Source: an uncultured Planctomycetaceae bacterium (GTDB taxonomy: Bacteria > Planctomycetota > Phycisphaerae > Sedimentisphaerales > UBA12454). Taken from it: a stretch of DNA of 64,000 nucleotides. Position numbers and translations under genes: made by a program. Numbering within the stretch: position 1 is the stretch's first letter; every line of letters begins with the position of its first letter. The notes beneath the pieces were generated by a model, which was not told the origin of the DNA, searched no databases, and saw only the letters and a list, made by a program, of their open reading frames with translations. Below, piece after piece: positions 2,032 to 49,509 of the stretch. Location: contig CAZUEO010000009.1 of NCBI GenBank assembly GCA_964619675.1, forward strand, positions 139-64,138. The letters run 5' to 3'.

Positions 2032-3060
2032 ATGGCGACCAAAGTTGGTATTAACGGTTTCGGCAGGATAGGCCGGGCGGTGGCGAGAATCCTGATGGAA
2101 AAAAAGACAGGTCTTGAGCTGGTAGCGGTAAATGACCTGACAGACGCCAAGACAAATGCCCATATGTTCAAATACGACAGTGCAATGGGCACTTGGGGCG
2201 GCACAATAAGCGCAGCGGAAGATTCGCTGGTTATCAACGGGAAAAAAATAAAGGTACTTTCCGTAAAGAATCCCGCGGAACTGCCGTGGAGGGATATGGG
2301 CGTTGACATTGTCGTCGAGTCCACAGGCATTTTCAGGGATCGCGAATCGGCAAAAGGCGGTTATGGCGACCACATCAAAGCGGGCGCAAAAAAAGTTCTA
2401 CTGACAGTTCCGGCCAAGGATGAAATCGACCTGACAATGGTAATGGGCGTCAACGATAATATGCTGAAACCCGAACACAATTGTGTTTCAAATGCAAGCT
2501 GCACGACAAACTGCCTCGCTCCTCCTGCAAAGGTAATCCACGAGGTCTTCGGTATTGAAAAAGGTTTTATGACTACGGTTCATGCCTATACCAACGACCA
2601 GCATGTGGCCGACCTTTTCCACAAAGACCTGCGGCGCGCACGTGCAGCAGCGGTAAATATCATCCCGACCACGACAGGCGCCGCAAGAGCGGTTGGGAAA
2701 GTCATACCCGACCTGAACGGCAAGCTCGACGGCTTTGCGCTTCGTGTGCCGGTGCTCGTAGGCAGTGTGGTTGACCTTGTAGTGGAGTTGAAAAAGGAAG
2801 TTACGATTGAGGAAGTCAACGCTGCTGTAAAGAAAGCTGCCGAAGGCCCGATGAAAGGCATATTGATTTACTGTGACGAGCCGATAGTCAGCAGCGATGT
2901 TATTATGAATCCCGCTTCGAGCGTCTTTGATGCGCTGAGCACAATGACCATTCCGAAAGGCAAGGGAAAAATGATTAAGGTCGTGAGCTGGTATGACAAC
3001 GAATGGGGCTATTCAAACCGCACTGTTGATATAATGGAAAGACTTGCAAAGATGCTGTAA
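2032..3060 (+). CDS. gap: glyceraldehyde-3-phosphate dehydrogenase
   Basis: [12 protein letters not shown]-binding motif, [12 protein letters not shown] catalytic-Cys motif, WYDNEWGYS near the C-terminus. AGGAGG SD. Confidence 0.95.
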
Positions 3061-3070
3061 CCTGTTCTTA

Positions 3071-3109
3071 AAAGGCCTGTTTTTTACACAAAGCAGGCCT
3101 TTATTTTTT
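3071..3109 (+). terminator. rho-independent terminator after gap
   Basis: Stem AAAGGCCTG (3071-3079) pairs with CAGGCCTTT (3094-3102), followed by a T-run at 3104-3109. Confidence 0.7.
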
Positions 3110-3141
3110 ATTGTCTTTCTTGTTGATGTGGAGATTTAAAA

Positions 3142-4380
3142 ATGGCAAAGAAAACCGTGGCCGACATAGACGTAAACGGCAAGAAGGTGCTGATGCGGGT
3201 CGATTTCAACGTGCCATTGGATGAAAACCGCAATATTACCAGCGACGCCAGAATCGTCGCGGCACTGCCGACAATAAAGACAATCCTCGATAAAGGCGGC
3301 TGTGTAATACTGATGAGCCATCTCGGCAGGCCGGATGGCGAAAGAAAACCTGAATTCTCGCTGGCGCCGGTCGCTAAAAAATTGGGCGAACTTCTGAATA
3401 AAAACGTTATCTTCGCAAACGACTGCATCGGACAAGAAGTAAAACAAAAAGCAGCAGCACTCAGGCCCGGAGACATTATGCTGCTCGAAAATGTCAGATT
3501 CCATAAAGAAGAAGAAATAAAAGATAAAAAAGCAGTTGAAGACCCCAAACTGCGAAAAGCAAAAGACGACTTCGCAAGACAACTGGCAGAACTCGGCGAC
3601 GTATATGTCGATGATGCATTCGGAACCACGCACCGCGATAACGCATCAATGTACACCGTGCCGGAGATGATGAAAGGGAAAGATAAAGTCATCGGATTCC
3701 TCGTCGAAAAAGAACTCAAATTTTTAGGCGACGCCCTGAACAATCCGAAAAAGCCGTTTGTTGCCATATTAGGCGGAGCAAAAATATCCGATAAACTGAA
3801 AGTCATCGAAAACCTTATGAAAAAAGTGGACTGTATCCTCATTGGCGGAGCTATGGCCTATACCTTCTTTAAAGCTCAGGGATATACAGTCGGGGACAGC
3901 CTGTGCGAAAATGACTTCATCGATAAGGCAAAAGAACTTATGGCCTTAGCACAAAAAGGCGGATGCGAATTAGTGCTGCCGCTCGATAACGTCATCGTGC
4001 AGAAAATTGAGGCCAACGCAGCAAGTCAAATATCAGATGATAATATCCCTGCCGGCTGGCATGGAGTCGATATAGGGCCTGAAACGATGACACTATTCGT
4101 TAAAAAGCTCGAAGGGGCCAAAACAGTCGTATGGAACGGACCAATGGGCATATTTGAGATGCCGCCATTCGATGCAGGCACAAAAGCAGTGGCCCAGGCA
4201 GTGGCAAAAGCTACCGGTGCGGGCGCGGTAAGCGTTATCGGAGGCGGCGACAGCGTAAGCGCCATTAAAAAGCTGGGCCTTTCAAAACGAGTCAGCCATA
4301 TATCAACAGGCGGTGGAGCAAGCCTTGAGTTTATGGAAGGCAGAAAATTCAAGTGCCTGGAAATACTTGATGAAAAATAG
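3142..4380 (+). CDS. pgk: phosphoglycerate kinase
   Basis: RVDFNVP N-terminal motif, GGAKISDK, VIGGGDS, STGGGASLEF. Full length, 412 aa. Confidence 0.95.
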   Translation: MAKKTVADIDVNGKKVLMRVDFNVPLDENRNITSDARIVAALPTIKTILDKGGCVILMSHLGRPDGERKPEFSLAPVAKKLGELLNKNVIFANDCIGQEVKQKAAALRPGDIMLLENVRFHKEEEIKDKKAVEDPKLRKAKDDFARQLAELGDVYVDDAFGTTHRDNASMYTVPEMMKGKDKVIGFLVEKELKFLGDALNNPKKPFVAILGGAKISDKLKVIENLMKKVDCILIGGAMAYTFFKAQGYTVGDSLCENDFIDKAKELMALAQKGGCELVLPLDNVIVQKIEANAASQISDDNIPAGWHGVDIGPETMTLFVKKLEGAKTVVWNGPMGIFEMPPFDAGTKAVAQAVAKATGAGAVSVIGGGDSVSAIKKLGLSKRVSHISTGGGASLEFMEGRKFKCLEILDEK

Positions 4381-5044
4381 ACGTTTGCCACAAGCTGATA
4401 CAATTGAGGTTGTGCCGTCAGTATTGAGCGCGGACTTTGCTCATCTTGCAGATGAAATCGCCCAAATCGAACGGGCAGGCGTAAAAATGGTACACCTTGA
4501 CGTTATGGACGGGCATTTTGTGCCAAACATAACTATCGGCCCGCCTGTTATCGAAAAATTGCGAAAATATTCCAAACTCGTATTCGACAGCCATCTGATG
4601 ATTAGCGAGCCGGAAAAATATGCCGATGAATTTATAAAGGCAGGCGTTGACCATATTACCTTCCATATCGAGGTAGTACCCCGGCCAGAAGATTTCATAA
4701 AAAAATTACACAATGCCGGCATAACAGCAGGAATCTGCCTTAACCCTGAAACGCCTGTGTCAAAAATAGAAAAATACGCGCGATTAGCAGATATGATTCT
4801 GGTAATGACAGTTCATCCAGGTTTCGGCGGACAACATTTTATCCAGGAAGCCGCTGATAAGATTAAACCTATTCGCCAAATCGTGGGGCCAAATATACGC
4901 ATCGAGGTTGACGGCGGGATTGACCCCGATACTACGCCAATTGTAACCGGATTAGGAGCAGATACACTCGTTGCAGGCTATGCAATATTCGCCAAGCCAG
5001 ACCGCCTGCAGGCAATAGAAGCTATACGCAACGCCTGCAGATAA
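4370..5044 (+). CDS. rpe: ribulose-phosphate 3-epimerase
   Basis: VPSVLSADF, HLDVMDGHFVPN, MTVHPGFGGQ, VDGGI motifs. I chose the start at ATG 4370 (MKNRRL...), which overlaps the pgk stop by 11 nt. The longer 4313 ORF start lies inside pgk. Confidence 0.9.
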   Translation: MKNRRLPQADTIEVVPSVLSADFAHLADEIAQIERAGVKMVHLDVMDGHFVPNITIGPPVIEKLRKYSKLVFDSHLMISEPEKYADEFIKAGVDHITFHIEVVPRPEDFIKKLHNAGITAGICLNPETPVSKIEKYARLADMILVMTVHPGFGGQHFIQEAADKIKPIRQIVGPNIRIEVDGGIDPDTTPIVTGLGADTLVAGYAIFAKPDRLQAIEAIRNACR

Positions 5045-5172
5045 TCGCCGCAGAGGATAAATCGTACCTGCGGCGGATAAATCCGAAAAAGGGACAAATT
5101 ACAGCAAAACCAAAAGTTTTAATAAACCTTGCTGCTCAGCCAGAGAGGCAAATCGAAATGGAGGTCACAGTT

Positions 5173-6318
5173 ATGAAACGGATTGTTTTTGCAATTCTAA
5201 TTATCACGGTTGTATTCTCAATTGCCAATGCCAAATACTCAGGCGGCTCGGGCACTTCCAACGACCCCTACCTGATATCCACAGCCGAAGATATGAACCA
5301 AATCGGAGACAACTCCGCCGACTGGGACAAGCACTTTAAACTGACGGCTGATATAAACCTCAGCAATTATACCGGTACAGAATTCAGTCGTATCGGCACC
5401 AGTACTGTACCATTCAACGGCGTATTTAACGGTGACGGCCATACGATTTGGAGCTTTACATATACGGCAGAAAACAGCGACTACATCGGTATTTTCAGTA
5501 CCGTAGGCGGCTCAGGAAAAATCGAAGATATTTTCATTGCAGACGTAAATATAAGCGGCCGCGATTACATCGGCGGGCTGGCAGGATACAACGAAGGAAC
5601 CATCGACAACTGCAGTTCGACAGGTAAAATTACCGGCGGGAGCAGTTTGCGAAATATTGGCGGACTGGTGGGAGAAAATTGGGGTAATATCAGTAACTGT
5701 TATTCAGCGGCTGCGGTGGCTGGCGGCGAGTGGACAGGCTACATCGGCGGATTGATAGGGGAAAACTACGGAGACCTCAGCAATTGCTACGCAATAGGCA
5801 GCGTCAGCGGTGGAGATTTTTCATACAATATCGGCGGACTGACAGGAGAAAATAGCTCCGGCACCATCAGCAACTGTTATGCAGCAGGCAGCGTCAACGG
5901 CGGAGATTTTTCATACAACCTTGGCGGATTGACAGGAGAAAACTATAGCACCATCAGCAATTGCTATTTTCTTAATAGCGAACCGAATAACGGCTACGGA
6001 GAACCATTGACAGATGAACAAATGAAACAACAGAGTAGTTTTGTCGGCTGGGACTTTGTCTGGGAAATCGTTAACGGGCCGAATGATATCTGGGCGATGT
6101 GCGAAGGAGTCTGCTATCCCAAGCTTGCCTGGCAGTTTATGCCGGGCGACTGTGATAACGATAAGGATGTTGATTTCCTCGATTTTGCCCGGCTGGCTCT
6201 GAATTGGTCGCAGGCCGACCCAAACGTTTACTGCGGCGGAACAGACCTCACCGGCAACGGCTGGATCGATTACAACGACCTGGTAATAATGTGCAGCCAC
6301 TGGCTGGAGGGTGCATAA
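5173..6318 (+). CDS. secreted GLUG-repeat protein with C-terminal dockerin/EF-hand-like module
   Basis: GGAGG SD 8 nt before ATG 5173. Signal peptide MKRIVFAILIITVVFSIANA. Repeated IGGL(V/I/T)GEN(Y/W)G..SNCY units. C-terminal DCDNDKDVDFLDF and DLTGNGWIDYNDL. Confidence 0.75.
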   Translation: MKRIVFAILIITVVFSIANAKYSGGSGTSNDPYLISTAEDMNQIGDNSADWDKHFKLTADINLSNYTGTEFSRIGTSTVPFNGVFNGDGHTIWSFTYTAENSDYIGIFSTVGGSGKIEDIFIADVNISGRDYIGGLAGYNEGTIDNCSSTGKITGGSSLRNIGGLVGENWGNISNCYSAAAVAGGEWTGYIGGLIGENYGDLSNCYAIGSVSGGDFSYNIGGLTGENSSGTISNCYAAGSVNGGDFSYNLGGLTGENYSTISNCYFLNSEPNNGYGEPLTDEQMKQQSSFVGWDFVWEIVNGPNDIWAMCEGVCYPKLAWQFMPGDCDNDKDVDFLDFARLALNWSQADPNVYCGGTDLTGNGWIDYNDLVIMCSHWLEGA

Positions 6319-6370
6319 ATAAAACTCGATTCAGTTCTGCACTTCTGGTATAATCAGCCCTGCCTTATTT

Positions 6371-7243
6371 ATGAGCATAATAAAAACAATGGCAAAACAG
6401 TCAAAATCACAATGGGAGGGCTTTAGCTTAAAGCCGAGGAAGGAAATGCCTGAAGGGCTATGGCTTAAATGCCCGGGCTGCGAGAAACTCCTCTTTAAAA
6501 AAGCAGTCGAGGAAAATCTAAATGTTTGTCCTGAATGTGACTACCATTTCCGCATTGGAGCCGACAAAAGATTGAAATACCTCGTCGATAAAGGCTCATT
6601 CGAGCAGATTCTGACCGGAATGGTTACGGCAGACCCGCTGGAATTCAAGTTCAGGGGAACCACATATAAAGACAGAGCAAAGGCCGCTGAAAAGGTCTCG
6701 GCAGGCAAAGAGGCTATGCTCATCGGCAAGGCCTTTATCAAAGGCAGAGGCCTGATGCTGGCGGTAATGGATTTTAATTACCTAGGTGGCTCAATGGGAG
6801 CCGTAGTCGGTGAAAAATTGTGTACCGCTATTGAAAAGGCAATGGAAAACTCGCTGCCGCTGGTAGTGGTAAGCTCGACAGGCGGGGCAAGAATGCACGA
6901 AGGCGTCGTCTCTTTGGGGCAGATGGCTAAAACAAGCGCTGCCTTGGCCAAGTTTGATGACCAGGAAGGTCTTTTTATATCAGTCCTGACTGATCCGACC
7001 ACTGGCGGGGTTACGGCCAGCTTTGCAATGTTGGGTGATGTTATCATAGCTGAGCCGGGGGCATTGATAGGTTTTGCAGGGCCGAGAACAATCTATGAAA
7101 CCATCAAGGTCGAACTGCCTGAAGGCTTCCAAAGGGCTGAATTTCTGCTTGAACACGGCTTCGTCGATATGATTGTACGCCGCAAAGACTTACGAAGCGA
7201 AATAGCCCGGCTGATTGACTACTGCGGGAAAAACCTAGCGTAA
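6371..7243 (+). CDS. accD: acetyl-CoA carboxylase carboxyltransferase beta subunit
   Basis: N-terminal zinc ribbon CPGC...CPEC, and carboxyltransferase core LGGSMG / TGGARMHEG. Confidence 0.9.
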   Translation: MSIIKTMAKQSKSQWEGFSLKPRKEMPEGLWLKCPGCEKLLFKKAVEENLNVCPECDYHFRIGADKRLKYLVDKGSFEQILTGMVTADPLEFKFRGTTYKDRAKAAEKVSAGKEAMLIGKAFIKGRGLMLAVMDFNYLGGSMGAVVGEKLCTAIEKAMENSLPLVVVSSTGGARMHEGVVSLGQMAKTSAALAKFDDQEGLFISVLTDPTTGGVTASFAMLGDVIIAEPGALIGFAGPRTIYETIKVELPEGFQRAEFLLEHGFVDMIVRRKDLRSEIARLIDYCGKNLA

Positions 7244-7301: not shown

Positions 7302-8351
7302 ATGGGTTATTTCCGTGAAAATGTGGAAAAAATGACAGGTTACGAGCCGGGCTTTCAGCCATCTGAAACAGATATAATCAAGCTCAATACCAATGAAAAT
7401 CCATACCCGCCAAGCCCAAAAGCAACAGAGGCGATAAAGAATATAAGTCCTGCAGAGCTAAGGAGATACCCGCAGCCAATGGCGGATAGTTTCAGAGAGA
7501 CGGCAGGTAAAATTTTAGGTGTGCAGCCGAAAAATATTATCTGCGTCAACGGCGGCGATGAATTACTGAACATCGCAATAAGAGCATTCTGCGATGAGAA
7601 ACGAGCCGTTGCTTATCCTGCGCCGACATACTCGCTTTATCCTGTGCTGGCACAAATGGCAAACTGCCCTGCCGTCGAGATTCCGTTCGATAAGGAATTT
7701 AACCTGCCGGCAAAACTGGCCTCAAGCGGCGCGGCATTAACAGTCGTCTGCAATCCAAATGCGCCAAGCGGAACATTCATACCAAAAGAAGAATTGTCGC
7801 AGCTTGCAGAAGAAATAAAGGGAATACTTCTGATTGACGAGGCTTATGTCGATTTTGCAGAAGATAACTGCCTTGAGCTTGTAAAAAAATTCGACAATGT
7901 GATTATCCTTCGCACGATGAGCAAAGGCTATTCGCTGGCAGGTCTGCGATTCGGATTCGGCATCGCAAATGAAGAAATAATAAACGGCCTGATGAAACTT
8001 AAAGATTCCTATAACGTCGATGCTGTTGCGATTGCCGCTGCGACGGCTGCGATACAGGACCAGCAGTATTTCAAAAATAATATTCAAAAAATCAAGATAG
8101 AGCGAAAGTTCATGACGGAAAGATTAACGGAGCTCGGATTTGAAGTGCCCGCAAGCCAGGCAAATTTTGTGCTTGCAAAACCCTCAAAAGCCAGAGCTAT
8201 CGATATCTATGAAAAACTCAAGGACAGAAACATATACGTCCGATACTGGGCATATCCCGATATAAAAGATAAGCTGAGAATTACGGTTGGGACCGGCGAG
8301 CAGAATGAAAAACTTATTGACGCATTAAAGGAAATTTTGGCCGAGGGATAA
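7302..8351 (+). CDS. hisC: histidinol-phosphate aminotransferase
   Basis: LNTNENPYPPSP, NPNAPSG, and the TMSKGYSLAGLRFG PLP-lysine motif. Confidence 0.9.
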   Translation: MGYFRENVEKMTGYEPGFQPSETDIIKLNTNENPYPPSPKATEAIKNISPAELRRYPQPMADSFRETAGKILGVQPKNIICVNGGDELLNIAIRAFCDEKRAVAYPAPTYSLYPVLAQMANCPAVEIPFDKEFNLPAKLASSGAALTVVCNPNAPSGTFIPKEELSQLAEEIKGILLIDEAYVDFAEDNCLELVKKFDNVIILRTMSKGYSLAGLRFGFGIANEEIINGLMKLKDSYNVDAVAIAAATAAIQDQQYFKNNIQKIKIERKFMTERLTELGFEVPASQANFVLAKPSKARAIDIYEKLKDRNIYVRYWAYPDIKDKLRITVGTGEQNEKLIDALKEILAEG

Positions 8352-40573: not shown

Positions 40574-40769
40574 GTGGTTAGCCTGCACCCCCGCGGTGCA
40601 GGGTTATTAAACAACGGTTAGCCCTGCCAACATTTATCCGCCTGCGGTGGATGGTGGGGCTTGTTTCAAATTTCGACTTTCTATTCCCCCTTCCGGGGGG
40701 TGTCGTTTTCACTTGGGAAACTTCTTTGTGCAGACGGGGGGAATTAAAAACATTTGTTCCCCTAACTCG

Positions 40770-41801
40770 TCAGGAAACCTTGTCATCCTTATTATCAGTA
40801 TTCTCCTTTTTCTTTTCGTCTGAAAATTTTCCCGCTGGCCCGCCTGCTGTGAACATTATTGCGAACCGCGTAACTAATGCACCCAAAAGAAGATATCCCA
40901 AAATCGCCTGCAACGCTATGAGTATATGCCCCCATATACTCTGTGCCTTCGCATACATATCACTAAAACCCAGCGTCATCGTAATTATGGAAAAGTAAAG
41001 CGCCCGCAAAGGCACTATCCAACACGGCACTTGAACACCGTTCCTATCCACAAATAAATTATCAATAATCCCTGTCGGTGATATCAGCCCCCAAAGATAG
41101 TAGATAATCGAAAAGATAAACACCAAAGATAAGAAAACTTTTACTATTCTTTTCTCAGATAAACCATAGTCACTCATCCACCAAAAAGTCTTAAAACCCC
41201 ATTTTAATTTCGAATGCTCCTTATACCAATCCTCCCAGTTCATCCGTCTTATATTATATTTCAGAAGCTGTTTTGTAGCTGGGTCAATTCTAATACTATC
41301 CAGTCCGACACCACTAAAATCAGTAAATCTACAATCTTTGTTATATCGATTAACTTTAAGTTCCCACAGATACGCCCCTTCCAGATGTGCAGAGAATAAA
41401 TCCGCACCCTCCAAATGGGCATCGGCTAAGTCGGCACCTTCCAAGTGAGCAAACTTTAACGTAGATTTTTCAAGATGGCAACCCATAAGGCTTGCGCCTT
41501 CTAAATGCGCCCAGCCCAAATTTGCACCACGTAAATACACATCACTTTTACCTTTTCGCGAAGTATCAACAGTATCATCATCATTTAAAAAATCGACACC
41601 GCTGCAGTTTAAGTGTACATCTTTTAGGTAACACTCACCAAGAGCAGCCCCCTCTAAAAGAATATCTTCATATTCATTTTTTTCTCTCCACTCATTCCAT
41701 TCGGCCATATCTTTTTTGTCGGAGCATTTTTTAAGCAGGTCGTATTGTTCTTGGCTGAATCTTGTTGGCTGATTTTCATTTTGGTTATTTTCTTCGCTCA
41801 T
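40770..41801 (-). CDS. pentapeptide-repeat protein fused to a two-TM ion-channel (K+-channel-like pore) domain
   Basis: AEWNEWREKN N-terminus. Tandem AHLEGA(D/S/Y)L pentapeptide repeats. C-terminal TM-pore-TM with FSIITMTLGFSDMY, which has GFSD in place of the canonical GYGD/GFGD filter. Confidence 0.8.
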   Translation of the reverse strand: MSEENNQNENQPTRFSQEQYDLLKKCSDKKDMAEWNEWREKNEYEDILLEGAALGECYLKDVHLNCSGVDFLNDDDTVDTSRKGKSDVYLRGANLGWAHLEGASLMGCHLEKSTLKFAHLEGADLADAHLEGADLFSAHLEGAYLWELKVNRYNKDCRFTDFSGVGLDSIRIDPATKQLLKYNIRRMNWEDWYKEHSKLKWGFKTFWWMSDYGLSEKRIVKVFLSLVFIFSIIYYLWGLISPTGIIDNLFVDRNGVQVPCWIVPLRALYFSIITMTLGFSDMYAKAQSIWGHILIALQAILGYLLLGALVTRFAIMFTAGGPAGKFSDEKKKENTDNKDDKVS

Positions 41802-42190
41802 TTTTGTCCCTGTTTACCTGTTAAATCTATCAAATTTATAACCGCAGGTATGTTGATATTTATTTCACTGCACCAGCGAACCCAGATTGGCACATAACCT
41901 TTGTTATATGCGTGAAGGAGTTTTTTCAAGGACCACTTTTTGTTGCTGCTGTCAATCTCTATCGCGTATTGCTTTCCATCAGAGCTTTTAATTATCATAT
42001 CTACAAGCCCTTTGTGTCCATCTGCTTTTCTTCTTAATCCCAAAAACACTTCTTTTTCGCATTCAAGTCTCTGCTCACGGACAAAGTTTTCTATTGATGA
42101 AGTGATATTTTCTGTACCTCCGTTTCTGTTGCCCCTGCCGTATGAATTTAAATCAGTTTTCTTTAAACAATGCTCAAGCAAATCTATCAT
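41798..42190 (-). CDS. small Vsr/DUF559-like PD-(D/E)xK-fold protein (putative)
   Basis: 130 aa. FLGLRRKADGHKGLVDMII...YAIEIDSSNKKW fits the RRx...D...(E)xD..K layout of restriction-endonuclease-like folds. ATGA overlap with the downstream channel gene. Confidence 0.45.
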   Translation of the reverse strand: MIDLLEHCLKKTDLNSYGRGNRNGGTENITSSIENFVREQRLECEKEVFLGLRRKADGHKGLVDMIIKSSDGKQYAIEIDSSNKKWSLKKLLHAYNKGYVPIWVRWCSEININIPAVINLIDLTGKQGQK

Positions 42191-42252
42191 TTTTATTTTT
42201 TTACCTTAATTTTTAATTCTCTTCTGTATCCTGTATTCTGAATTCTTATTTC

Positions 42253-42281
42253 ATTTTCCCTCTACCTGCTCTTTTTGTCAA
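42253..42281 (-). promoter_or_regulatory. candidate promoter for the 41798..42190 / 40770..41801 pair
   Basis: On the minus strand: TTGACA (42281-42276), 17-nt spacer, GAAAAT (42258-42253). Confidence 0.3.
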
Positions 42282-42693
42282 CAAATACGTTGCGATGTTT
42301 AAAAAGCCTCTTTTTGACCCGTAAAAACAGCGTTTTTATTTCTACTCTGTGTCCGGAGTTTACCCCGCCTGCCCTGTGAAGTGTCGCAACTACTTTATCG
42401 GGGTGAGATGTCGCACTTATCTCATCGGGGTGTTTCTTCGGTTCGGAGCCTGCCCCTGCGAAAGCAGGGGTGGTTAAAAATCTCCGCCGCAGGCGGCTCA
42501 TACAACTAGCGACTAACAACCAGCGACTAATTATCGCAGCCCTCGGCCGGCAACTGCAATTTTCCTTGTCCCGCATCTATTAGGCTCCTGCCGTGAATAG
42601 GTGCGGGATTTCTCCGCCTTTGGCGAATCCGCGGTTAATTTTTGATTTTTAAACTGTGGTTTTGGGCTTTTAGCTTTAACTTTTAAGTTCCAT

Positions 42694-42832
42694 TGCTCTC
42701 TGCATCTTTGATTGATAATTATCAACTATCATCTTTAGGTTCAATTTTTGATTTTTAATATGTCATTTTGCATTTTAATTTTTGATTTTTGATATTCTTT
42801 AATAGCGACTAACGACCAGCGACTAACGACTG
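42694..42832. repeat. composite repeat unit A+B, copy 1
   Basis: A module at 42694-42764, containing the perfect palindrome TTGATAATTATCAA (42712-42725). B module at 42761-42832 (tgtcattttgcattttaatttttgatttttgatattcttta...ctaacgaccagcgactaacgactg). Confidence 0.9.
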
Positions 42833-42962
42833 ACTTTCTTGCCTTTGATTGATAATTATCAACTATCGCTTTTTTTAAAAAATCCGCCGCATGGCGTAAG
42901 CCATCCCATAGGGAGGCGGCTCCACAAATCTTCAATCTACAATCTTCATTCTTCAATTCTGC

Positions 42963-43033
42963 TGCTCTCTGCATCTTTGATTGATAATTATCAACTATCA
43001 TCTTTAGGTTCAATTTTTGATTTTTAATATGTC
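42963..43033. repeat. A module copy 2 (71 nt, identical to 42694-42764)
   Basis: Perfect 71/71 direct repeat 269 bp downstream of copy 1, with the palindrome at 42981-42994. A short A core (ctttgattgataattatcaactatc) also occurs at 42843-42867. Confidence 0.95.
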
Positions 43034-43138
43034 GTTTTTATATTTTATTTTTTAGTTTTTATTTTATTACTACTCCTTTGCTTGACACTTGCCTGCCTTA
43101 GGCGGGTATCATTCTTCGCCTCAATTATAAATTCCTCA

Positions 43139-43344
43139 GCCACTATACTTGTATGCAGTATACTGCAATGCAGCATAGTGGCAACGTTCATTTGCTTTAG
43201 GGCATAACTGCGCAGCAGATTGCTTCAACTTTGACGATTTTGTCGGCAAAGATTCGGATTTGAAATCCTGCGGGCAAACTCGTTTGCTAAGCAGGTTGAT
43301 AATCTGAATTTAAGCTACCCTTAGGGTTGTTTAGTTGAAGCAAT
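43139..43344. ncRNA. candidate structured RNA (unclassified) in the only non-repetitive part of the desert
   Basis: Nested perfect stems: GCCACTAT (43139-43146) / ATAGTGGC (43175-43182), enclosing palindrome TGCAGTATACTGCA (43154-43167). A 12-bp stem ATTGCTTCAACT (43219-43230) / AGTTGAAGCAAT (43333-43344) encloses CCTGC/GCAGG (43267-43271 / 43291-43295) around GCAAAC/GTTTGC, plus ACCC-tta-GGGT (43317-43327). Strand and ends are unknown. Confidence 0.25.
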
Positions 43345-43489
43345 ACTCTGTGTGTTCTGTGAGCTCTGTGACTAAATTGATTTATTCTTCGTGTCCTTCG
43401 TGAGCTTCGTGGTGAAAAAATATGAGAACAAGGTCTCGGCTATTGGCCGAACTCCACAAATTTTGAATTTTAAACTTTCGTTTCTCCCT

Positions 43490-43612
43490 GTCTTTGCTTG
43501 ATAGTTATCAACTATTATTTTTTGTCCGCAATTTTTGAATTTTGATTTGTCATTTTGCATTTTAATTTTTGATTTTTGATATTCTTTACTAACGACCAGC
43601 GACTAGCGACTG
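43490..43612. repeat. composite repeat unit A'+B, copy 3 (divergent A, conserved B)
   Basis: Variant palindrome TTGATAGTTATCAA at 43498-43511. B module at 43548-43612: its first 41 nt are identical to 42761-42801 and its last 24 nt match 42809-42832 at 23 positions; the 42802-42808 segment is absent. Confidence 0.85.
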
Positions 43613-43713
43613 CATAATCCGTGGTTACTTCCCAAACTCAACTGAAATTGTCCGCAAAAACCGATAACAAATAACCGAATTTCTGATAACCGGTAACTGA
43701 TAACCGATATCTA

Positions 43714-43905
43714 TTTTTTACAAAATGCGCACGTTTTTTTACAAAACGCGCATTTTTTACCATTCAAAATCAGCGTAATCCGTGTAATCCGCGGTTAATT
43801 TACAAAACGCGCACGTTTTTCGACCGAATGCGCAATTTTCTACCCTCATTTTTGGGCTGATTTTTTAAAACATGCGCAAAATGCAAAAAAACATGCGCTT
43901 TTTGC
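43714..43905. repeat. cluster of six A-run/GCGCA/T-run mini-palindromes
   Basis: tacaaaatgcgcacgttttttt (43719-43740), acaaaacgcgcatttttt (43741-43758), ttacaaaacgcgcacgttttt (43800-43820), gaatgcgcaatttt, aacatgcgcaaaatg, aacatgcgctttttg. Confidence 0.8.
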
Positions 43906-44320
43906 AAAAAAAAATCGTTCCTAACTCCTTTATTTCGATAAAAAGTTAAGTACTTACGTCAAAATTCCCAGCGCAATTAAATGACTTACAACGATATTTT
44001 GCGCAACCGCAACCGATTGACGCAAATTTTCACCTGTTCTAATTTCAATTTTCGACTCTCGATTTTCGATTTTTCTCTTCCGACCCTTCCTTTGGTACTC
44101 CTGACCCGATATCGTCGCTGTTTGGTTTCAGAGGCGCCATTTTTGAGGTAAAAACGCCCATTTTTAAGGGGTTGAAGAATTTTAAACTTGTCCTCGCGAA
44201 GGCGGGGAAGTGGTCTCAAGCAGCTTTTACCCTCTAAATAGCACAATAGTTCAAAAAAACTGTTTACTGTTTATATCTAATCTCACGTTTTTAAGCGAAA
44301 ATTGCCGTTATAAAGTAATA

Positions 44321-44351
44321 TCTCTGTGTTTTCTGTGCCCCTGTGGCTAAA
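44321..44351. repeat. CTCTGTG...CTGTGGCTAAA element directly upstream of fhs
   Basis: tctctgtgttttctgtgcccctgtggctaaa ends 11 nt before ATG 44363. Relatives: 43346-43376, 46219-43 (before folD), and variants at 46165-46185 and 43386-43420. Confidence 0.8.
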
Positions 44352-44362
44352 GGATTACATAA

Positions 44363-47199: not shown

Positions 47200-47478
47200 A
47201 TGTATTCGTCAAATCTAAAACAAATAGTAAAGTCCTGTGCCGAGCAATACGGGGTGAAAAGTGTCTGGCTGTTCGGCTCCGCAGTAGAGGATGAACAGCA
47301 TGCAAACGATATAGACCTTGCGGTTGAAGGCCTGGAGCCTGAAAAATTTTTTGATTTCTACGGCAGATTGTTTTTTGAGCTGCCGAAGATGGTTGACCTC
47401 GTTGACCTTTCACAAAATCCTCCGATAACATCCATAGTGCGACAGAAGGGAATCCGCATTTATGAGCGCAGAAGCTGA
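47200..47478 (+). CDS. MNT-type nucleotidyltransferase (antitoxin-like, MntA family)
   Basis: 92 aa with the minimal NTase motif LFGSAVEDEQHANDIDLAV. Confidence 0.8.
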   Translation: MYSSNLKQIVKSCAEQYGVKSVWLFGSAVEDEQHANDIDLAVEGLEPEKFFDFYGRLFFELPKMVDLVDLSQNPPITSIVRQKGIRIYERRS

Positions 47479-47872
47479 TTATATTTCCGCAGAACGCGAA
47501 AACATTTTGCGCACAGTAAAAATGACGGAAGATTTATTGTCGAAAAAAGACATCTCCGAATATGAAGTTATCGCATTGGGAAAATTACTGCAGGATATTT
47601 ATACAGGCATCGAACGAATATTTCGCACTCAACTTGAATCAATGAATATTAAAACCGACAAAACTCAAAGCTGGCACAAAGAGGCGCTTTTAGCAGCTAA
47701 AAAGCATAGCTTGGTATCAGAGGTTCAATTTAAGTGCTTCCGTGATTTGCTTTTGTTCAGGCATATGGAAATTCACGGATACGGTTATATGCTTGATAAG
47801 CAGCGGCTTTTAGAGCTTGCCAGGCCTGTGCCTGCTGTTTGCAGGGAATTTCTGGAGCATTTAAAACTGTAA
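47462..47872 (+). CDS. HEPN-domain protein (HepT-like toxin)
   Basis: 136 aa with the Rx4H motif in LLLFRHMEIHGYG. 17-nt overlap with the upstream NTase gene. Confidence 0.7.
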   Translation: MSAEADYISAERENILRTVKMTEDLLSKKDISEYEVIALGKLLQDIYTGIERIFRTQLESMNIKTDKTQSWHKEALLAAKKHSLVSEVQFKCFRDLLLFRHMEIHGYGYMLDKQRLLELARPVPAVCREFLEHLKL

Positions 47873-47972: not shown

Positions 47973-48009
47973 AATTAAAACGTCATAAATAAATTATCTT
48001 TATTTACAT

Positions 48010-48510
48010 TCAAGGTTCTGTTTTGCCTAATGCCATAATTTTGCCCTGACCTGTTTTGACATATTCAATTGCGGAATGGAGTCTTTCTTTTGTCCATATA
48101 TATTTTGTACTTCCGTGTCTTGTCCAATATTTATCAGCCGGAATATTGCCTGTTTTTTTGATTGCATTTGTGGCGTATCTTTTAAAATCAGACATCATTT
48201 TTTCTGGTTCTTCCTGCCCACTGACAACAATATGGATATGATTGCTTCTGACGTGTGCAGAATGAGCATGCCAGCCGCGAAATTTGCACACATCCAAAAT
48301 CGCCTGCAATACTATCTCTCTGCACAACGCATCTAATTTAATTGATGGATTCTTTAAATTACTTTCCTCTTTTATATTCAGCCCGGGATTATTAGGCAGA
48401 AATTTTTCACCAAAGCGATTATGTTTTTTATCCACACTAGCACGTTCATCGCCGTGCAGCCACGTTCCGTATGTTGTAAAAGTTATCAGATATGCAAGCG
48501 GATATTCCAT
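48010..48510 (-). CDS. IS200/RAYT-like HUH (Y1) transposase-family protein
   Basis: YLITFTTYGTWLHGDERASVD N-terminus, HUH motif SNHIHIVV, C-terminal Tyr region HSAIEYVKTGQG. Confidence 0.7.
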   Translation of the reverse strand: MEYPLAYLITFTTYGTWLHGDERASVDKKHNRFGEKFLPNNPGLNIKEESNLKNPSIKLDALCREIVLQAILDVCKFRGWHAHSAHVRSNHIHIVVSGQEEPEKMMSDFKRYATNAIKKTGNIPADKYWTRHGSTKYIWTKERLHSAIEYVKTGQGKIMALGKTEP

Positions 48511-48550
48511 CTCAAATCCTTACCACAGACCCGCGTGGGCTAAAGCCTCA

Positions 48551-49219
48551 TCACTTATCTTGATTCGTTACCCACCTTTTTCTCCATTCTTTATACCACC
48601 GTTTTGATTTAATACCTGATCTAAATTTCCATTTTTTTAAACGTGTTAAAAGTCCTTTATTCAAAAGCTCATCTAACGCCTCATTCTCAAAATAATAAGA
48701 CCCTTGGAGTAATTTAATCTTACAGGACTCTATTAAAAGATCGTTGAGCATCGAAATCATTTGCTTGGCGTCTTTGTTTTTTATTCTCGTAGGCACAGAA
48801 ATTCGGCTATTGACATCTATTTTACCTTTGTCTCTATCTAATCCCACATATATTGCTCTCTGTTTTTTTAATTCAAGTTGCTTTTTCTCAACGAACTCAA
48901 CAAACTTTGGTGAATAGTCAGAAGCCATCCCCCATCCAAAAAAAGCTTTATGTTTTTCATGATGGAGGTATAAAAGTTTTAACCATTCTTGTTCAAAATC
49001 TTCATCTGGCCAATTATTGTTTGTATCCGATGACCAATAATAATGTTCAACCCAATATGATTTAGCAAGTTCTTCCATCGCAAGTACTGATAGATGGAAT
49101 GAAGAAGGAAAGGACTTATTCTTATATAAGAGGATTGAATCAAAATGAAGCCTTAACCCATTCTTAAATGACTCTGTTGCAATTCTTTTAAACTTATATT
49201 TAGAAAGATTTTTTCTCAT
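48551..49219 (-). CDS. AbiV-like (HEPN-type) abortive-infection protein
   Basis: FKNGLRLHFDSILLYKNKSFPSSFHLSVLAMEELAKSYWV fits the AbiV N-terminal helix pattern (N..rL..D...L......A..L..la.EE..K). The gene is AT-rich. Confidence 0.55.
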   Translation of the reverse strand: MRKNLSKYKFKRIATESFKNGLRLHFDSILLYKNKSFPSSFHLSVLAMEELAKSYWVEHYYWSSDTNNNWPDEDFEQEWLKLLYLHHEKHKAFFGWGMASDYSPKFVEFVEKKQLELKKQRAIYVGLDRDKGKIDVNSRISVPTRIKNKDAKQMISMLNDLLIESCKIKLLQGSYYFENEALDELLNKGLLTRLKKWKFRSGIKSKRWYKEWRKRWVTNQDK

Positions 49220-49236
49220 ATATTTTAATTGAAAAC

Positions 49237-49265
49237 ATTATCCTCTCAATTTTCGCCGAAGGCAA
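49237..49265 (-). promoter_or_regulatory. candidate promoter for the abiV-like/Y1 transposase-like pair
   Basis: On the minus strand: TTGCCT (49265-49260), 17-nt spacer, GATAAT (49242-49237). It lies inside the inverted-repeat-bounded segment. Confidence 0.4.
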
Positions 49266-49324
49266 GCCTAAATAAACGCCCTGTGAGCCCCCAATGTAAA
49301 TGAGGGGTAATTTATGTTATTTTG

Positions 49325-49351
49325 ACCGCTCCATTACTGTCGCGGCTCTGT
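49325..49351. repeat. 27-bp inverted repeat, right copy
   Basis: ACCGCTCCATTACTGTCGCGGCTCTGT, the exact reverse complement of 47946-47972. Confidence 0.95.
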
Positions 49352-49509
49352 TTGTTCAAAATTTAATTTCGCATAATCTCTGTAAAGTTCTTTGGCGGCC
49401 TCGTCATAAGCCTTTGCGACCAACCAAAACCTCTGGCATTTACAACACAGGTCGGTATAATAATGCGGCTGTTTTTAAAATAAGGCCATATACGAATAGG
49501 GAGCTCAAA

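Follow-up and report, generated by a model that had tools for sequence, protein, structure and literature searches.

A small nuclease-fold protein paired with a pentapeptide-repeat channel in Planctomycetota: an accessory cassette with a possible likeness to Hailong

Pentapeptide-repeat proteins such as MfpA, Qnr, AlbG and cyanobacterial Rfr/Np275 are soluble, and several of them act on DNA gyrase; MfpA and Qnr are treated as DNA mimics. Channels with a cytoplasmic partner are known from the anti-phage system Hailong (HalA/HalB). The Hailong channel is reported to be closed by a nucleic-acid ligand from its partner, and its release to depolarise the cell; this ligand is reported as an oligonucleotide bound between subunits, and not as a protein on the solenoid. 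A Hailong-like system in which a protein combining pentapeptide repeats with an IRK channel has a nucleotidyltransferase partner is also described. Our literature search found no paper on pentapeptide-channel fusions paired with nucleases and no functional study of the pentapeptide-repeat channel family.

The window analysed here (64,000 nucleotides of contig CAZUEO010000009.1, from an uncultured Planctomycetaceae bacterium) carries such a fusion directly behind a gene for a small protein with a predicted nuclease fold. We tentatively read the two genes as an accessory cassette of Phycisphaerae-type Planctomycetota, possibly combining a cytoplasmic sensor or regulator with a membrane effector in a Hailong-like logic. 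An ordinary regulated channel is nearly as likely.

Layout, surroundings and recurrence of the pair

Both genes lie on the minus strand and have the coordinates and the ATGA overlap that a first-pass annotation of this DNA gave them. The small gene (41798..42190) encodes a basic protein of 130 residues (pI 9.2) with a PD-(D/E)xK-type fold, as judged from the open reading frame and an AF2 model, and its stop overlaps the start of the channel gene (40770..41801) at 41798..41801, as read directly. The channel gene encodes 343 residues that comprise a pentapeptide-repeat solenoid and a two-helix potassium-channel-type pore. We conclude that both open reading frames are real genes. Differences between the small gene and ten orthologues fall on codon positions 1, 2 and 3 in the numbers 211, 165 and 435, a skew that points to purifying selection on this gene.

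The cassette and adjoining repeat-rich non-coding DNA form a low-GC accessory stretch (40650..44362, no strand; GC 0.37-0.40) amid two housekeeping blocks. GC is 0.369 in the small gene and 0.400 in the channel gene, against 0.47 in both flanks and 0.442 in the window, and the two genes are indeed AT-rich, as first described. The reported gene-poor stretch beside the pair is also present (42191-44362), with many local repeats and no credible gene. No direct repeats were found at the boundaries of the low-GC stretch. The flanks consist, as had been noted, of unrelated housekeeping genes: an RseP-type M50 protease, Dxr, a PocR/AraC regulator and an AAA_26-DRTGG protein on one side, and formate-tetrahydrofolate ligase and FolD on the other.

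Elements on the minus strand at either end of the pair recur in related loci. About 60 nt upstream of the small-gene ATG, a consensus scan finds a putative promoter, TTGACA-17-GAAAAT (42253..42281; 10 of 12 matches), and relatives have TTGAGT-17-TAGAAT upstream of the small gene at a comparable position. Behind the channel stop codon is a conserved element of about 90 nt (40650..40769) with a hairpin, GACACCCCCC-GGAA-GGGGG, at 40686-40704. Each paired locus whose sequence extends far enough has a single copy of it 3' of the channel gene, and the unpaired channel loci L035-L044 have none. Since this cassette-specific element is shared, the two genes appear to be bounded as one unit. The simplest guess is that it is a terminator or 3' UTR. 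A structured RNA was considered and rejected, as the only predicted structure is a C5/G5 hairpin, with no compensatory changes and no Rfam match.

The gene-neighbourhood association whose absence had been set in advance as a ground for dropping the two-gene idea was found: at 14 distinct loci in Planctomycetota/Phycisphaerae assemblies, with differing flanks, the small gene is followed by the channel at a spacing of -4 to +4 nt, and relatives have spacers of 2-4 nt in place of the ATGA overlap of the window. The channel lies directly 3' at a fixed junction in 14 of the 15 loci that have close homologues of the small protein (at least 67% identity) and readable downstream sequence; the single exception is a syntenic deletion (L001) with the small gene alone. 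The loci were collected via the small gene, and the survey is blind to cassettes that have lost it. At least one assembled genome has two cassette copies, and a second copy is present in the metagenome sample of the window itself. The pair is patchy, occurs at varied chromosomal sites, is low in GC and mosaic, and has decayed in some lineages; it is thus not the ubiquitous core content that would have spoken against a specialised system. Neither a transposase nor an integrase accompanies the pair at the paired loci, and a search for terminal repeats was negative.

The defence context is inconsistent for the pair and clearer for distant relatives of the small protein. Within 5 kb, genes of defence or mobile type occur at about 4-5 of 11 distinct paired loci, a sample too small to tell this from chance; they include type IIG restriction-modification, Cas9-like, HNH, MNT/HEPN and IS1595. 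About half of the other paired loci have housekeeping flanks like those at the window. The first-pass annotation had put placement in defence islands up for survey; defence-type or mobile neighbours occur at these few loci and not at the others, the window included. PADLOC has no match to the small protein or the channel. The small protein gave no tblastn match to any of 50,697 phage records, nor any match to viral contigs, and we rejected a phage origin of this protein; channel matches in phages are to the repeats only.

The small protein and the channel

The small protein has about 50 close homologues in a family of 255 clusters at 50% identity. Its AF2 model (pLDDT 89.7) has an alpha-beta-beta-beta-alpha-beta topology (H19-39, E43-53, E60-68, E74-79, H84-96, E100-105), and its Foldseek neighbours in the PDB are DrdV, Bax1, Card1, McrC, SfsA, PspGI and VRR_NUC (E 4e-3 to 0.1). 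Five BFVD matches lie below 1e-3, the best viral structural match having TM 0.62 and E 4.8e-6, and many annotated PD-(D/E)XK nucleases are among the BFVD matches; DUF2726 and MmcB-like proteins come up there no better than at E about 7e-3. We conclude that the modelled core fold is of the PD-(D/E)xK type, and the nuclease fold first proposed is borne out at this level. The more specific label, Vsr/DUF559, has to be given up in favour of the generic fold class: no Pfam or NCBIfam model matches (E up to 1), nor does any in PADLOC, and Vsr is not among the listed structural neighbours. The family profile has no match to PDB sequences at E up to 10, PHROGs returns only the unnamed family phrog_1347 (1.2e-6) and a faint transposase match, and a profile search with the wide alignment mostly recovered the same close homologues again.

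The motifs VDMII and YAIEIDSSNKK, quoted in the first-pass annotation, are present and hold the most conserved residues of the family. In the family alignment these are E47 (42050-42052), D64 (41999-42001), E78 (41957-41959), D80 (41951-41953), and N83 and K84 (41939-41944), all on the minus strand. Among 58 diverse relatives (23-45% identity), D64 is invariant and E47, E78, D80 and K84 are at least 90% conserved. The protein retains the acidic and lysine residues used by PD-(D/E)xK enzymes, which read D64...E78-I-D80...K84 in linear order and form a candidate catalytic motif. Its relatives elsewhere have other partners or none. Some are fused to RNase H, Cas2, helix-turn-helix or zinc-finger domains, and others are neighbours of McrBC or are flanked by a type XI retron RT-protease and an HNH nuclease.

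In the channel (AF2 model, pLDDT 81.7; all coordinates on the minus strand), an N-terminal helical cap at residues 14-39 (RFSQEQYDLLKKCSDKKDMAEWNEWR; 41685..41762; model helices 17-29 and 33-41) is conserved in paired and unpaired family members alike. DNA identity between cassettes continues through the cap segment and stops where the repeats begin. The cassettes come in types A-E, and besides the cap the invariant parts are the linker helices at residues 174-210 and the C-terminal tail TAGGPAGKF. The predicted cytoplasmic solenoid follows at residues 47-170 (41292..41663; net charge -11), as indicated by Pfam, AF2 and Foldseek. The protein passes the Pfam Pentapeptide model (PF00805; 2.8e-12, 46.4 bits, cut-off 20.2), and its top Foldseek matches are pentapeptide proteins, MfpA and Qnr among them. 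The model has a regular strand every five residues from 47 to 170, with an insertion of low confidence at residues 77-81. The count of about eight repeats first given was too low, although the repeats themselves are real, as about 12 are counted in the clean stretch of residues 92-150 by itself. Solenoid length in paired channels ranges from 73 to 225 residues.

The pore domain has the membrane topology first described, namely a first transmembrane helix (residues 216-240; 41082..41156, from the AF2 secondary structure), a pore helix (residues 260-277) that leads into the filter TLGFSD (residues 276-281; 40959-40976; together 40959..41024), and a second, inner transmembrane helix (residues 289-318; 40848..40937), the last two also aligned to NaK/NaK2K. 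The match to Pfam Ion_trans_2 (1.2e-3, 19.1 bits) is below the cut-off of 22.5, and the channel homologue P0073 reaches 32.3 bits; a profile of the channel family matches the pore region of GORK, SKOR, NaK and KcsA at 2.5e-6 and weaker. We conclude from sequence and model together that the channel belongs to the potassium-channel pore superfamily. The filter, read directly, is not the canonical T-[VIL]-G-[YF]-G-D. Aligned to 'ALYFSvvTLTtVGFGD' of NaK/NaK2K it has a one-residue gap and S for G, so that it reads TLGFSD after a one-residue deletion, and TTLGFGD, the consensus of the family, is present in 77 of 130 aligned sequences (longer consensus TMTTLGFGD). This degeneracy makes potassium selectivity of the window channel doubtful. 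Across the channel family the filter variants are TTLGFGD, TLGFSD, TVGFTN and TGFED. A degenerate filter was ruled out as a mark of paired channels, given that P0124 (TLGFSD) and P0091 (TVGFTN) are unpaired and that L014 is paired and canonical.

HalA (9nyi_A) is the only solved structure that matches the window channel over its full length (Foldseek, E 8.5e-4, 304 columns, TM 0.27). Sequence searches of the PDB did not recover HalA, and with the NCBIfam model anti_phage_HalA, whose cut-off is 250 bits, the channel scores 13.9 bits (E 0.024). The channel is thus outside the HalA family and has only a weak full-length structural likeness to it. A HalB-like partner nearby was considered and rejected. 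An MNT/HEPN pair lies in the window at 47.2-47.9 kb, and another is next to the cassette in L017, the only locus in which an MNT-type nucleotidyltransferase adjoins it (MntA 4.8e-4, HalB 1.1e-3); the likeness to HalB is in both cases no better than that to MntA antitoxins.

Possible functions of the pair

The Hailong-like reading to which we tentatively incline runs as follows. The small PD-(D/E)xK-fold protein would bind or cut nucleic acid and would restrain the channel, directly or via a nucleic-acid ligand. An altered nucleic-acid state of the cell, for example infection, would release the channel. The TLGFSD pore, whose degenerate filter suggests a cation pore that is not potassium-selective, would then conduct cations and depolarise the cell. 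The conserved pair, its common promoter-like region and 3' element, its copies and low GC, the nuclease fold, the partners of the small protein's relatives and some defence neighbours are consistent with such a system. So is the decay of the channel: among the loci collected via the small gene, it is disrupted or deleted in three lineages in which the small gene is intact, the order expected if the effector is harmful and its partner restrains it. The match to HalA, a nucleic-acid-gated defence channel, gives the proposed abortive-infection-type module a precedent, and the defence context around the pair is inconsistent. The sub-cut-off HalA match, the larger channel family, the uncorrelated divergence of the two proteins, the synteny of unpaired channels, solo small genes, housekeeping flanks and the want of a PADLOC or phage link all argue against the Hailong-like reading.

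Several of these points suit a regulated cation channel of the ordinary kind, one that has a cytoplasmic accessory subunit and a role outside defence, in which a channel paralogue would serve ion homeostasis or signalling and a nuclease fold would be re-used as a regulatory or assembly partner; this is possible, and we rate it nearly as highly. Compared with that of the small protein, the channel family is larger by a factor of at least 40, and its unpaired members, with canonical filters and with TLGFSD, keep a conserved housekeeping synteny that includes SpoVG, DedA-type, AMMECR1 and Maf genes, which suggests an ordinary physiological channel. Housekeeping genes also flank the pair in the window, PADLOC and phage searches were negative, and tight coupling with equal gene dosage suits a stable complex. 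A purely structural subunit, however, would not be expected to conserve catalytic-type residues across such diverse relatives, nor does a physiological channel readily account for a pair that has a patchy occurrence, low GC, several copies and a mosaic make-up and has been pseudogenised repeatedly, or for the association of the small protein's relatives with RNase H, Cas2, a retron and McrBC. The two proteins could also have no functional link at all, the small gene being an independent nuclease (for repair, restriction-like or selfish) that is co-transcribed with channel genes and recombines in front of them, which we consider unlikely. Pairwise divergences of the two proteins are uncorrelated (r = 0.035; ten pairs, among which the identity of the small protein saturates at about 70-80%), which argues against simple co-inheritance, interaction being beyond the reach of a ten-pair test. 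From the small gene into the first ~120 nt of the channel gene, the DNA of L017 and L021 is 94% identical, and their channel types differ; the small gene stands alone in L001 and intact beside dead channels, and its relatives manage with other partners or none. Against independence stand the fixed junction in 14 of 15 loci, the common 3' element that bounds both genes as one unit, and the fact that neither transposase or integrase nor terminal repeats were found with the pair.

How the two proteins might meet is a narrower question. The first-pass annotation speculated that the nuclease-fold protein could sit on the solenoid as on a DNA mimic and gate the channel; in this model the protein, bound to the acidic solenoid, would keep the pore shut until competing foreign DNA opened it. 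In favour are a small protein that is basic in nine of ten pairs (pI about 9.2-9.6), solenoids with an acidic net charge of -2 to -11, the tight coupling of the genes, and the presence of MfpA and Qnr among the structural matches of the channel. Nevertheless, several of the solenoids are only weakly acidic, those of unpaired channels are just as acidic, and solenoid length varies threefold among paired channels. The divergences of the two proteins do not co-vary, the small gene persists without the channel, and the Hailong ligand is reported to be an oligonucleotide between subunits. We regard this docking model as improbable, the least probable of the explanations weighed here. A bolder version of the Hailong-like reading is hardly more probable, namely that HalA-like pentapeptide channels make up a modular class of effectors open to control by different nucleic-acid-sensing partners, in which a minimal PD-(D/E)xK protein here replaces the nucleotidyltransferase and gates the pore directly, by docking on the DNA-like solenoid or through a nucleic-acid ligand that it holds or cuts, as a new two-gene abortive-infection system of Planctomycetota.

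If the link is functional, Hailong-type channels would not be bound to one partner, and a pentapeptide-solenoid pore could couple to different nucleic-acid sensors, as other defence effectors do. A function would then be in sight for the unnamed 255-cluster family of small nuclease-fold proteins and for the very large family of pentapeptide-repeat channels, and membrane-depolarising immunity would extend to Planctomycetota, a phylum whose phages have been little studied. Should the link lie outside defence, the cassette would still be a compact example of a channel that has an accessory protein of nuclease fold, and the filter series of its family a natural set for the study of ion selectivity.

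Comparison with known systems

The likeness of each part to its superfamily is partial. The small protein was compared with restriction enzymes, McrC, Card1, Bax1, RecB-type, MmcB-like and DUF2726 members of the PD-(D/E)xK superfamily. It has their alpha-beta-beta-beta-alpha-beta core, structural neighbours that are nucleases of this superfamily, and conserved acidic residues on strands 2 and 3. In contrast to them, its third motif is E-x-D with the lysine four residues later, and not (D/E)xK; the protein is also very small, lacks an additional domain for DNA recognition, and falls outside every existing sequence family searched (Pfam, NCBIfam and PADLOC). The modelled solenoid is a right-handed quadrilateral beta-helix of A(D/N)LXX repeats like those of MfpA, Qnr, AlbG and Rfr/Np275, but it is tethered to a membrane pore and is highly variable in length among relatives. 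The pore has the first transmembrane helix, pore helix, filter and second transmembrane helix of KcsA, NaK/NaK2K and Kir. Pore helix and filter can be aligned with those of NaK2K and KcsA, and the wider family keeps TTLGFGD, whereas the window filter is one residue shorter with Ser for the second Gly, and the cytoplasmic domain is a pentapeptide solenoid in place of an RCK or Kir domain.

Hailong and the window cassette are both two-gene operons of a cytoplasmic nucleic-acid-related protein and a channel, and both channels have a C-terminal pore domain and an N-terminal cytoplasmic domain. The partners differ, as HalB is a nucleotidyltransferase and the window protein is a 130-residue protein of the PD-(D/E)xK fold. 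The partner gene comes first in the window cassette, and the context is mostly housekeeping. Hailong is an anti-phage system, an activity for which the window cassette is at most a candidate.

Two overlapping genes in a low-GC interval

Two minus-strand ORFs lie exactly where the first-pass annotation placed them and are joined, as it described, by an ATGA overlap. The small gene (41798..42190, 130 aa) comes first and is followed by the gene of a pentapeptide-repeat and pore protein, here called the channel (40770..41801, 343 aa). Judged by sequence comparison, both are genuine genes, because the small protein has about 50 close homologues and the channel at least 1,904, and because differences between the small gene and ten orthologues fall 211/165/435 at codon positions 1/2/3. 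A putative promoter-like TTGACA-17-GAAAAT is found ~60 nt upstream of the small gene's ATG. The GC content of the pair is 0.37-0.40 and that of the 2.2-kb non-coding stretch upstream (42191-44362) is 0.38, compared to 0.47 in the blocks on either side. These blocks are housekeeping in character: one carries genes for an M50/RseP protease, Dxr, a PocR-AraC regulator, and an AAA_26-DRTGG protein, and in the other are those for formate-tetrahydrofolate ligase and FolD.

The non-coding stretch is rich in repeats and has no match in Rfam. A 24-nt repeat containing the perfect palindrome TTGATAATTATCAA occurs at 42707, 42844, 42976, and 43493 (chance expectation, none), accompanied by a 124-nt repeat in three copies and by TTTACAAAAYGCGCA-type repeats at 43696-43904. 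From its sequence, the palindrome looks like a putative operator for a dimeric regulator. A 115-nt piece of the stretch recurs, at 88.7% identity, upstream of a second copy of the gene pair (L020/L031). Another low-GC stretch (0.32-0.38) lies at 48000-49500, with minus-strand ORFs at 48013-48510 and 48554-49219.

Fold of the small protein and architecture of the channel

The small protein has no match in Pfam, NCBIfam, or PADLOC, nor does the profile of its family match any solved structure at the sequence level. An AlphaFold2 model built with 19 homologues is confident (pLDDT 89.7, pTM 0.84) and comprises a helix (residues 19-39), three strands (43-53, 60-68, and 74-79), a second helix (84-96), and a final strand (100-105), an order that in the model is that of the PD-(D/E)xK core. 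Among the PDB matches listed by Foldseek are DrdV, Bax1, Card1, McrC, SfsA, PspGI, HindIII, and VRR_NUC; as far as about E = 0.1, the listed matches belong to the PD-(D/E)xK superfamily, and all are weak, with E values of 4e-3 or more. Among predicted viral structures, five match below 1e-3, the best being a 128-aa protein of Escherichia phage phi191 (TM 0.62, E 4.8e-6), and the list includes many proteins annotated as PD-(D/E)XK, RecB-family, Mrr, MmcB-like, or DUF2726. By sequence, no phage homologue was found in the phage records and viral contigs searched. The modelled topology and the Foldseek matches support the nuclease fold class, whereas the specific label in the initial "Vsr/DUF559-like" description is not supported. 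An exhaustive profile search returned 255 clusters of relatives. In 58 diverse relatives (23-45% identity), D64 never varies, and T26, E47, E78, D80, and K84 each reach 90% conservation or more, a pattern that suggests a working metal-dependent active site. With its nuclease fold and conserved residues of catalytic type, the small protein is a member of an unnamed family within that known fold.

In the channel, Pfam detects pentapeptide repeats (2.8e-12), with Ion_trans_2 slightly below the cut-off, and a profile from 46 family members matches the pore region of GORK, SKOR, NaK, and KcsA (2.5e-6 and weaker). The model (pLDDT 81.7) shows an N-terminal two-helix cap (residues 17-41), the solenoid (47-170), linker helices (174-210), TM1 (216-240), a pore helix (260-277), and TM2 (289-318). 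Aligned with NaK2K, the filter region reads 'ivPlrALYFSiiTMt-LGFsD' against 'lrPidALYFSvvTLTtVGFGD'. The family consensus is TMTTLGFGD (77/130 sequences); the subgroup of this channel has TM-TLGFSD, and other subgroups have TVGFTN, T-GFED, or T[TI]GFGD. Given the known behavior of KcsA-type filters, loss of one residue together with the change of the second glycine should abolish potassium selectivity. This pentapeptide-repeat channel belongs to the potassium-channel superfamily, and its filter is degenerate. It is a new and divergent form of known kinds, joining pentapeptide repeats to a potassium-channel pore in a HalA-like architecture.

Conservation, mosaicism, and decay of the cassette

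Genome and metagenome scans with the small-protein family, together with individual protein look-ups, gathered 14 distinct paired loci: that of the window (L012), L003, L006, L008, L013, L014/L030, L016, L017/L018, L020/L031, L021, L022, L023, L024, and L033/L034. At all 14, a channel-family gene comes immediately after the small gene, with -4 to +4 nt between them, and the flanking genes vary. The cassette is a conserved, tightly coupled operon, and the pairing is conserved within a narrow clade, which bears out the proposed association of the two families. No description of this pairing was found in the libraries and papers searched.

A sequence of ~90 nt, lying 3' of the channel stop and ending in the hairpin GACACCCCCC-loop-GGGGG (40686-40704 in the window), is common to all paired loci that reach far enough. 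Unpaired channel loci lack this element, which shows no covariation. Because the layout is shared across loci, the promoter region, both genes, and the 3' element can be regarded as one unit. The element (40650-40769, minus strand) exists in two sequence types. At L001, a copy (7854-7990) lies just upstream of an orphan small gene whose channel is gone, a position that tandem cassettes or recombination at the element would leave as a remnant.

Other observations argue against strict coupling. The channel family is far larger than the small-protein family, and no small gene lies beside the homologous channels P0124 (TLGFSD), P0091 (TVGFTN), and P0112 (canonical filter). Their loci (L035-L043) have the same neighborhood across assemblies for two of the three and partly for the third: GHMP kinase and SpoVG, both on the opposite strand, followed by the channel, a DedA-type VTT protein, AMMECR1, an unknown gene, and Maf. 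The arrangement suggests that the family's main branch has a core role related to the membrane. A fourth unpaired channel, P0085, adjoins type VI secretion genes. Across ten pairs, pairwise identities of small proteins (0.67-0.90) and of channels (0.50-0.87) are uncorrelated (r = 0.035), and by this comparison the two have different histories. In L017 and L021, the DNA is 94% identical from the small gene through the initial ~120 nt of the channel gene; the identity stops where the repeats start, and the two loci carry different channel types. The cassettes are mosaics.

The channel gene has also decayed repeatedly. The syntenic loci L001 and L008 both lie between glgP and the EIIA/QueA genes; L008 has the full pair and L001 the small gene alone. 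The L017/L018 channel carries in-frame stop codons in two independent metagenome assemblies (Trp-to-stop in the outer pore loop at L017 5527-5529 and at the same position in L018, which has one further stop), and that of L016 is frameshifted in the repeat region (about 1240-1364). The small ORF is intact beside all three. Two cassette copies occur on different contigs of one assembled genome, and the window's metagenome sample holds a second copy. With its patchy distribution, multiple copies, low GC, mosaicism, and repeated decay, the pair is accessory rather than core, in agreement with the check set by the first-pass annotation.

More distant relatives of the small protein also occur in other settings. 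In L009/L025/L026, the gene 2 nt downstream encodes a PCC-domain protein, and L009 also has McrBC upstream. In L010 (5992-7131)/L027 and in the relative P0320, one ORF combines the small-protein domain with RNase H (PF00075, 7.4e-38) and a Cys-rich C-terminal tail; L010 also has DUF3800-like, ASCH-like, and antirepressor-like genes (by sequence only). Others are fused to Cas2, helix-turn-helix, or zinc-finger domains, one sits between a type XI retron RT-protease (PADLOC 4.8e-143) and an HNH nuclease, and P0177 has plain housekeeping neighbors.

Genomic context, rival readings, and likeness to Hailong

PADLOC matched neither product. A defence scan covered 71 neighboring ORFs at ten paired loci. 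Around L030 are a DprA-like gene, an HNH gene, and, upstream of the paired copy, a type IIG restriction-modification enzyme (3195-6065, plus strand; 1.5e-40). L031 has a Cas9-like ORF (2411-4441, minus strand; PADLOC 6e-60) 2.8 kb from the paired copy, and the cassette is followed by an MNT/HEPN pair at L017 and by HNH at L021. The orphan locus L001, outside the 71-ORF scan, has IS1595 and HNH genes nearby. No defence-type or mobile neighbors were found at the window, L006, L008, L022, L033, or L013. The resulting four or five of eleven loci are suggestive, a count not separable from chance at this sample size, and the defence context of the pair is weak.

In the window, 5 kb from the cassette and directly after FolD, overlapping plus-strand ORFs (47200-47478 and 47462-47872) resemble an MntA/HepT toxin-antitoxin module, with a minimal nucleotidyltransferase (LFGSAVEDEQHANDIDLAV) and a HEPN protein (RHMEIHGY). 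PADLOC families PDC-S09 and AbiV were matched within the window set. The similar MNT+HEPN pair at L017 occupies 6242-7025, and its MNT matches MntA (4.8e-4) and HalB (1.1e-3) about equally.

We tentatively favor, by analogy, a Hailong-like cassette of small-protein regulator or sensor and effector channel. The channel would let cations through non-selectively, the small protein would act in the cytoplasm as the channel's nucleic-acid-directed regulator or sensor, in the role that HalB has for HalA, and the pore would open when the nucleic-acid signal is disturbed. Channel decay with survival of the small gene fits a harmful effector restrained by its partner, in a set of loci found via the small gene, where the opposite loss would be invisible. 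An ordinary regulated channel with an accessory subunit, to be weighed with the conserved neighborhood of unpaired channels and with the repeated decay of paired ones, is nearly as likely. That the genes are unrelated and merely co-transcribed is unlikely; the uncorrelated identities are to be set beside the constant adjacency at 14 loci. As a sub-case, the first-pass annotation had the small protein dock on the solenoid as a DNA mimic. A basic small protein and an acidic solenoid are compatible with such docking, but solenoid lengths range from 73 to 225 residues and unpaired channels are equally acidic, and we consider it very unlikely. The original observation is confirmed and its interpretation partly supported; the cassette merits a targeted experiment but does not so far amount to evidence of a new defence system.

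According to a review (PMC13434031), HalA of the Hailong anti-phage system is a tetrameric channel kept closed by oligodeoxyadenylate from its partner HalB, and it opens once a phage nuclease removes this ligand. Foldseek matches of the window's channel mostly cover the solenoid only, and the only solved structure aligned across both domains is HalA (9nyi_A; E 8.5e-4, 304 columns, TM 0.27). The NCBIfam HalA match on the pore is faint (E 0.024, 13.9 bits against a cut-off of 250). By sequence the channel is not a member of the HalA family, but in architecture it is weakly alike.
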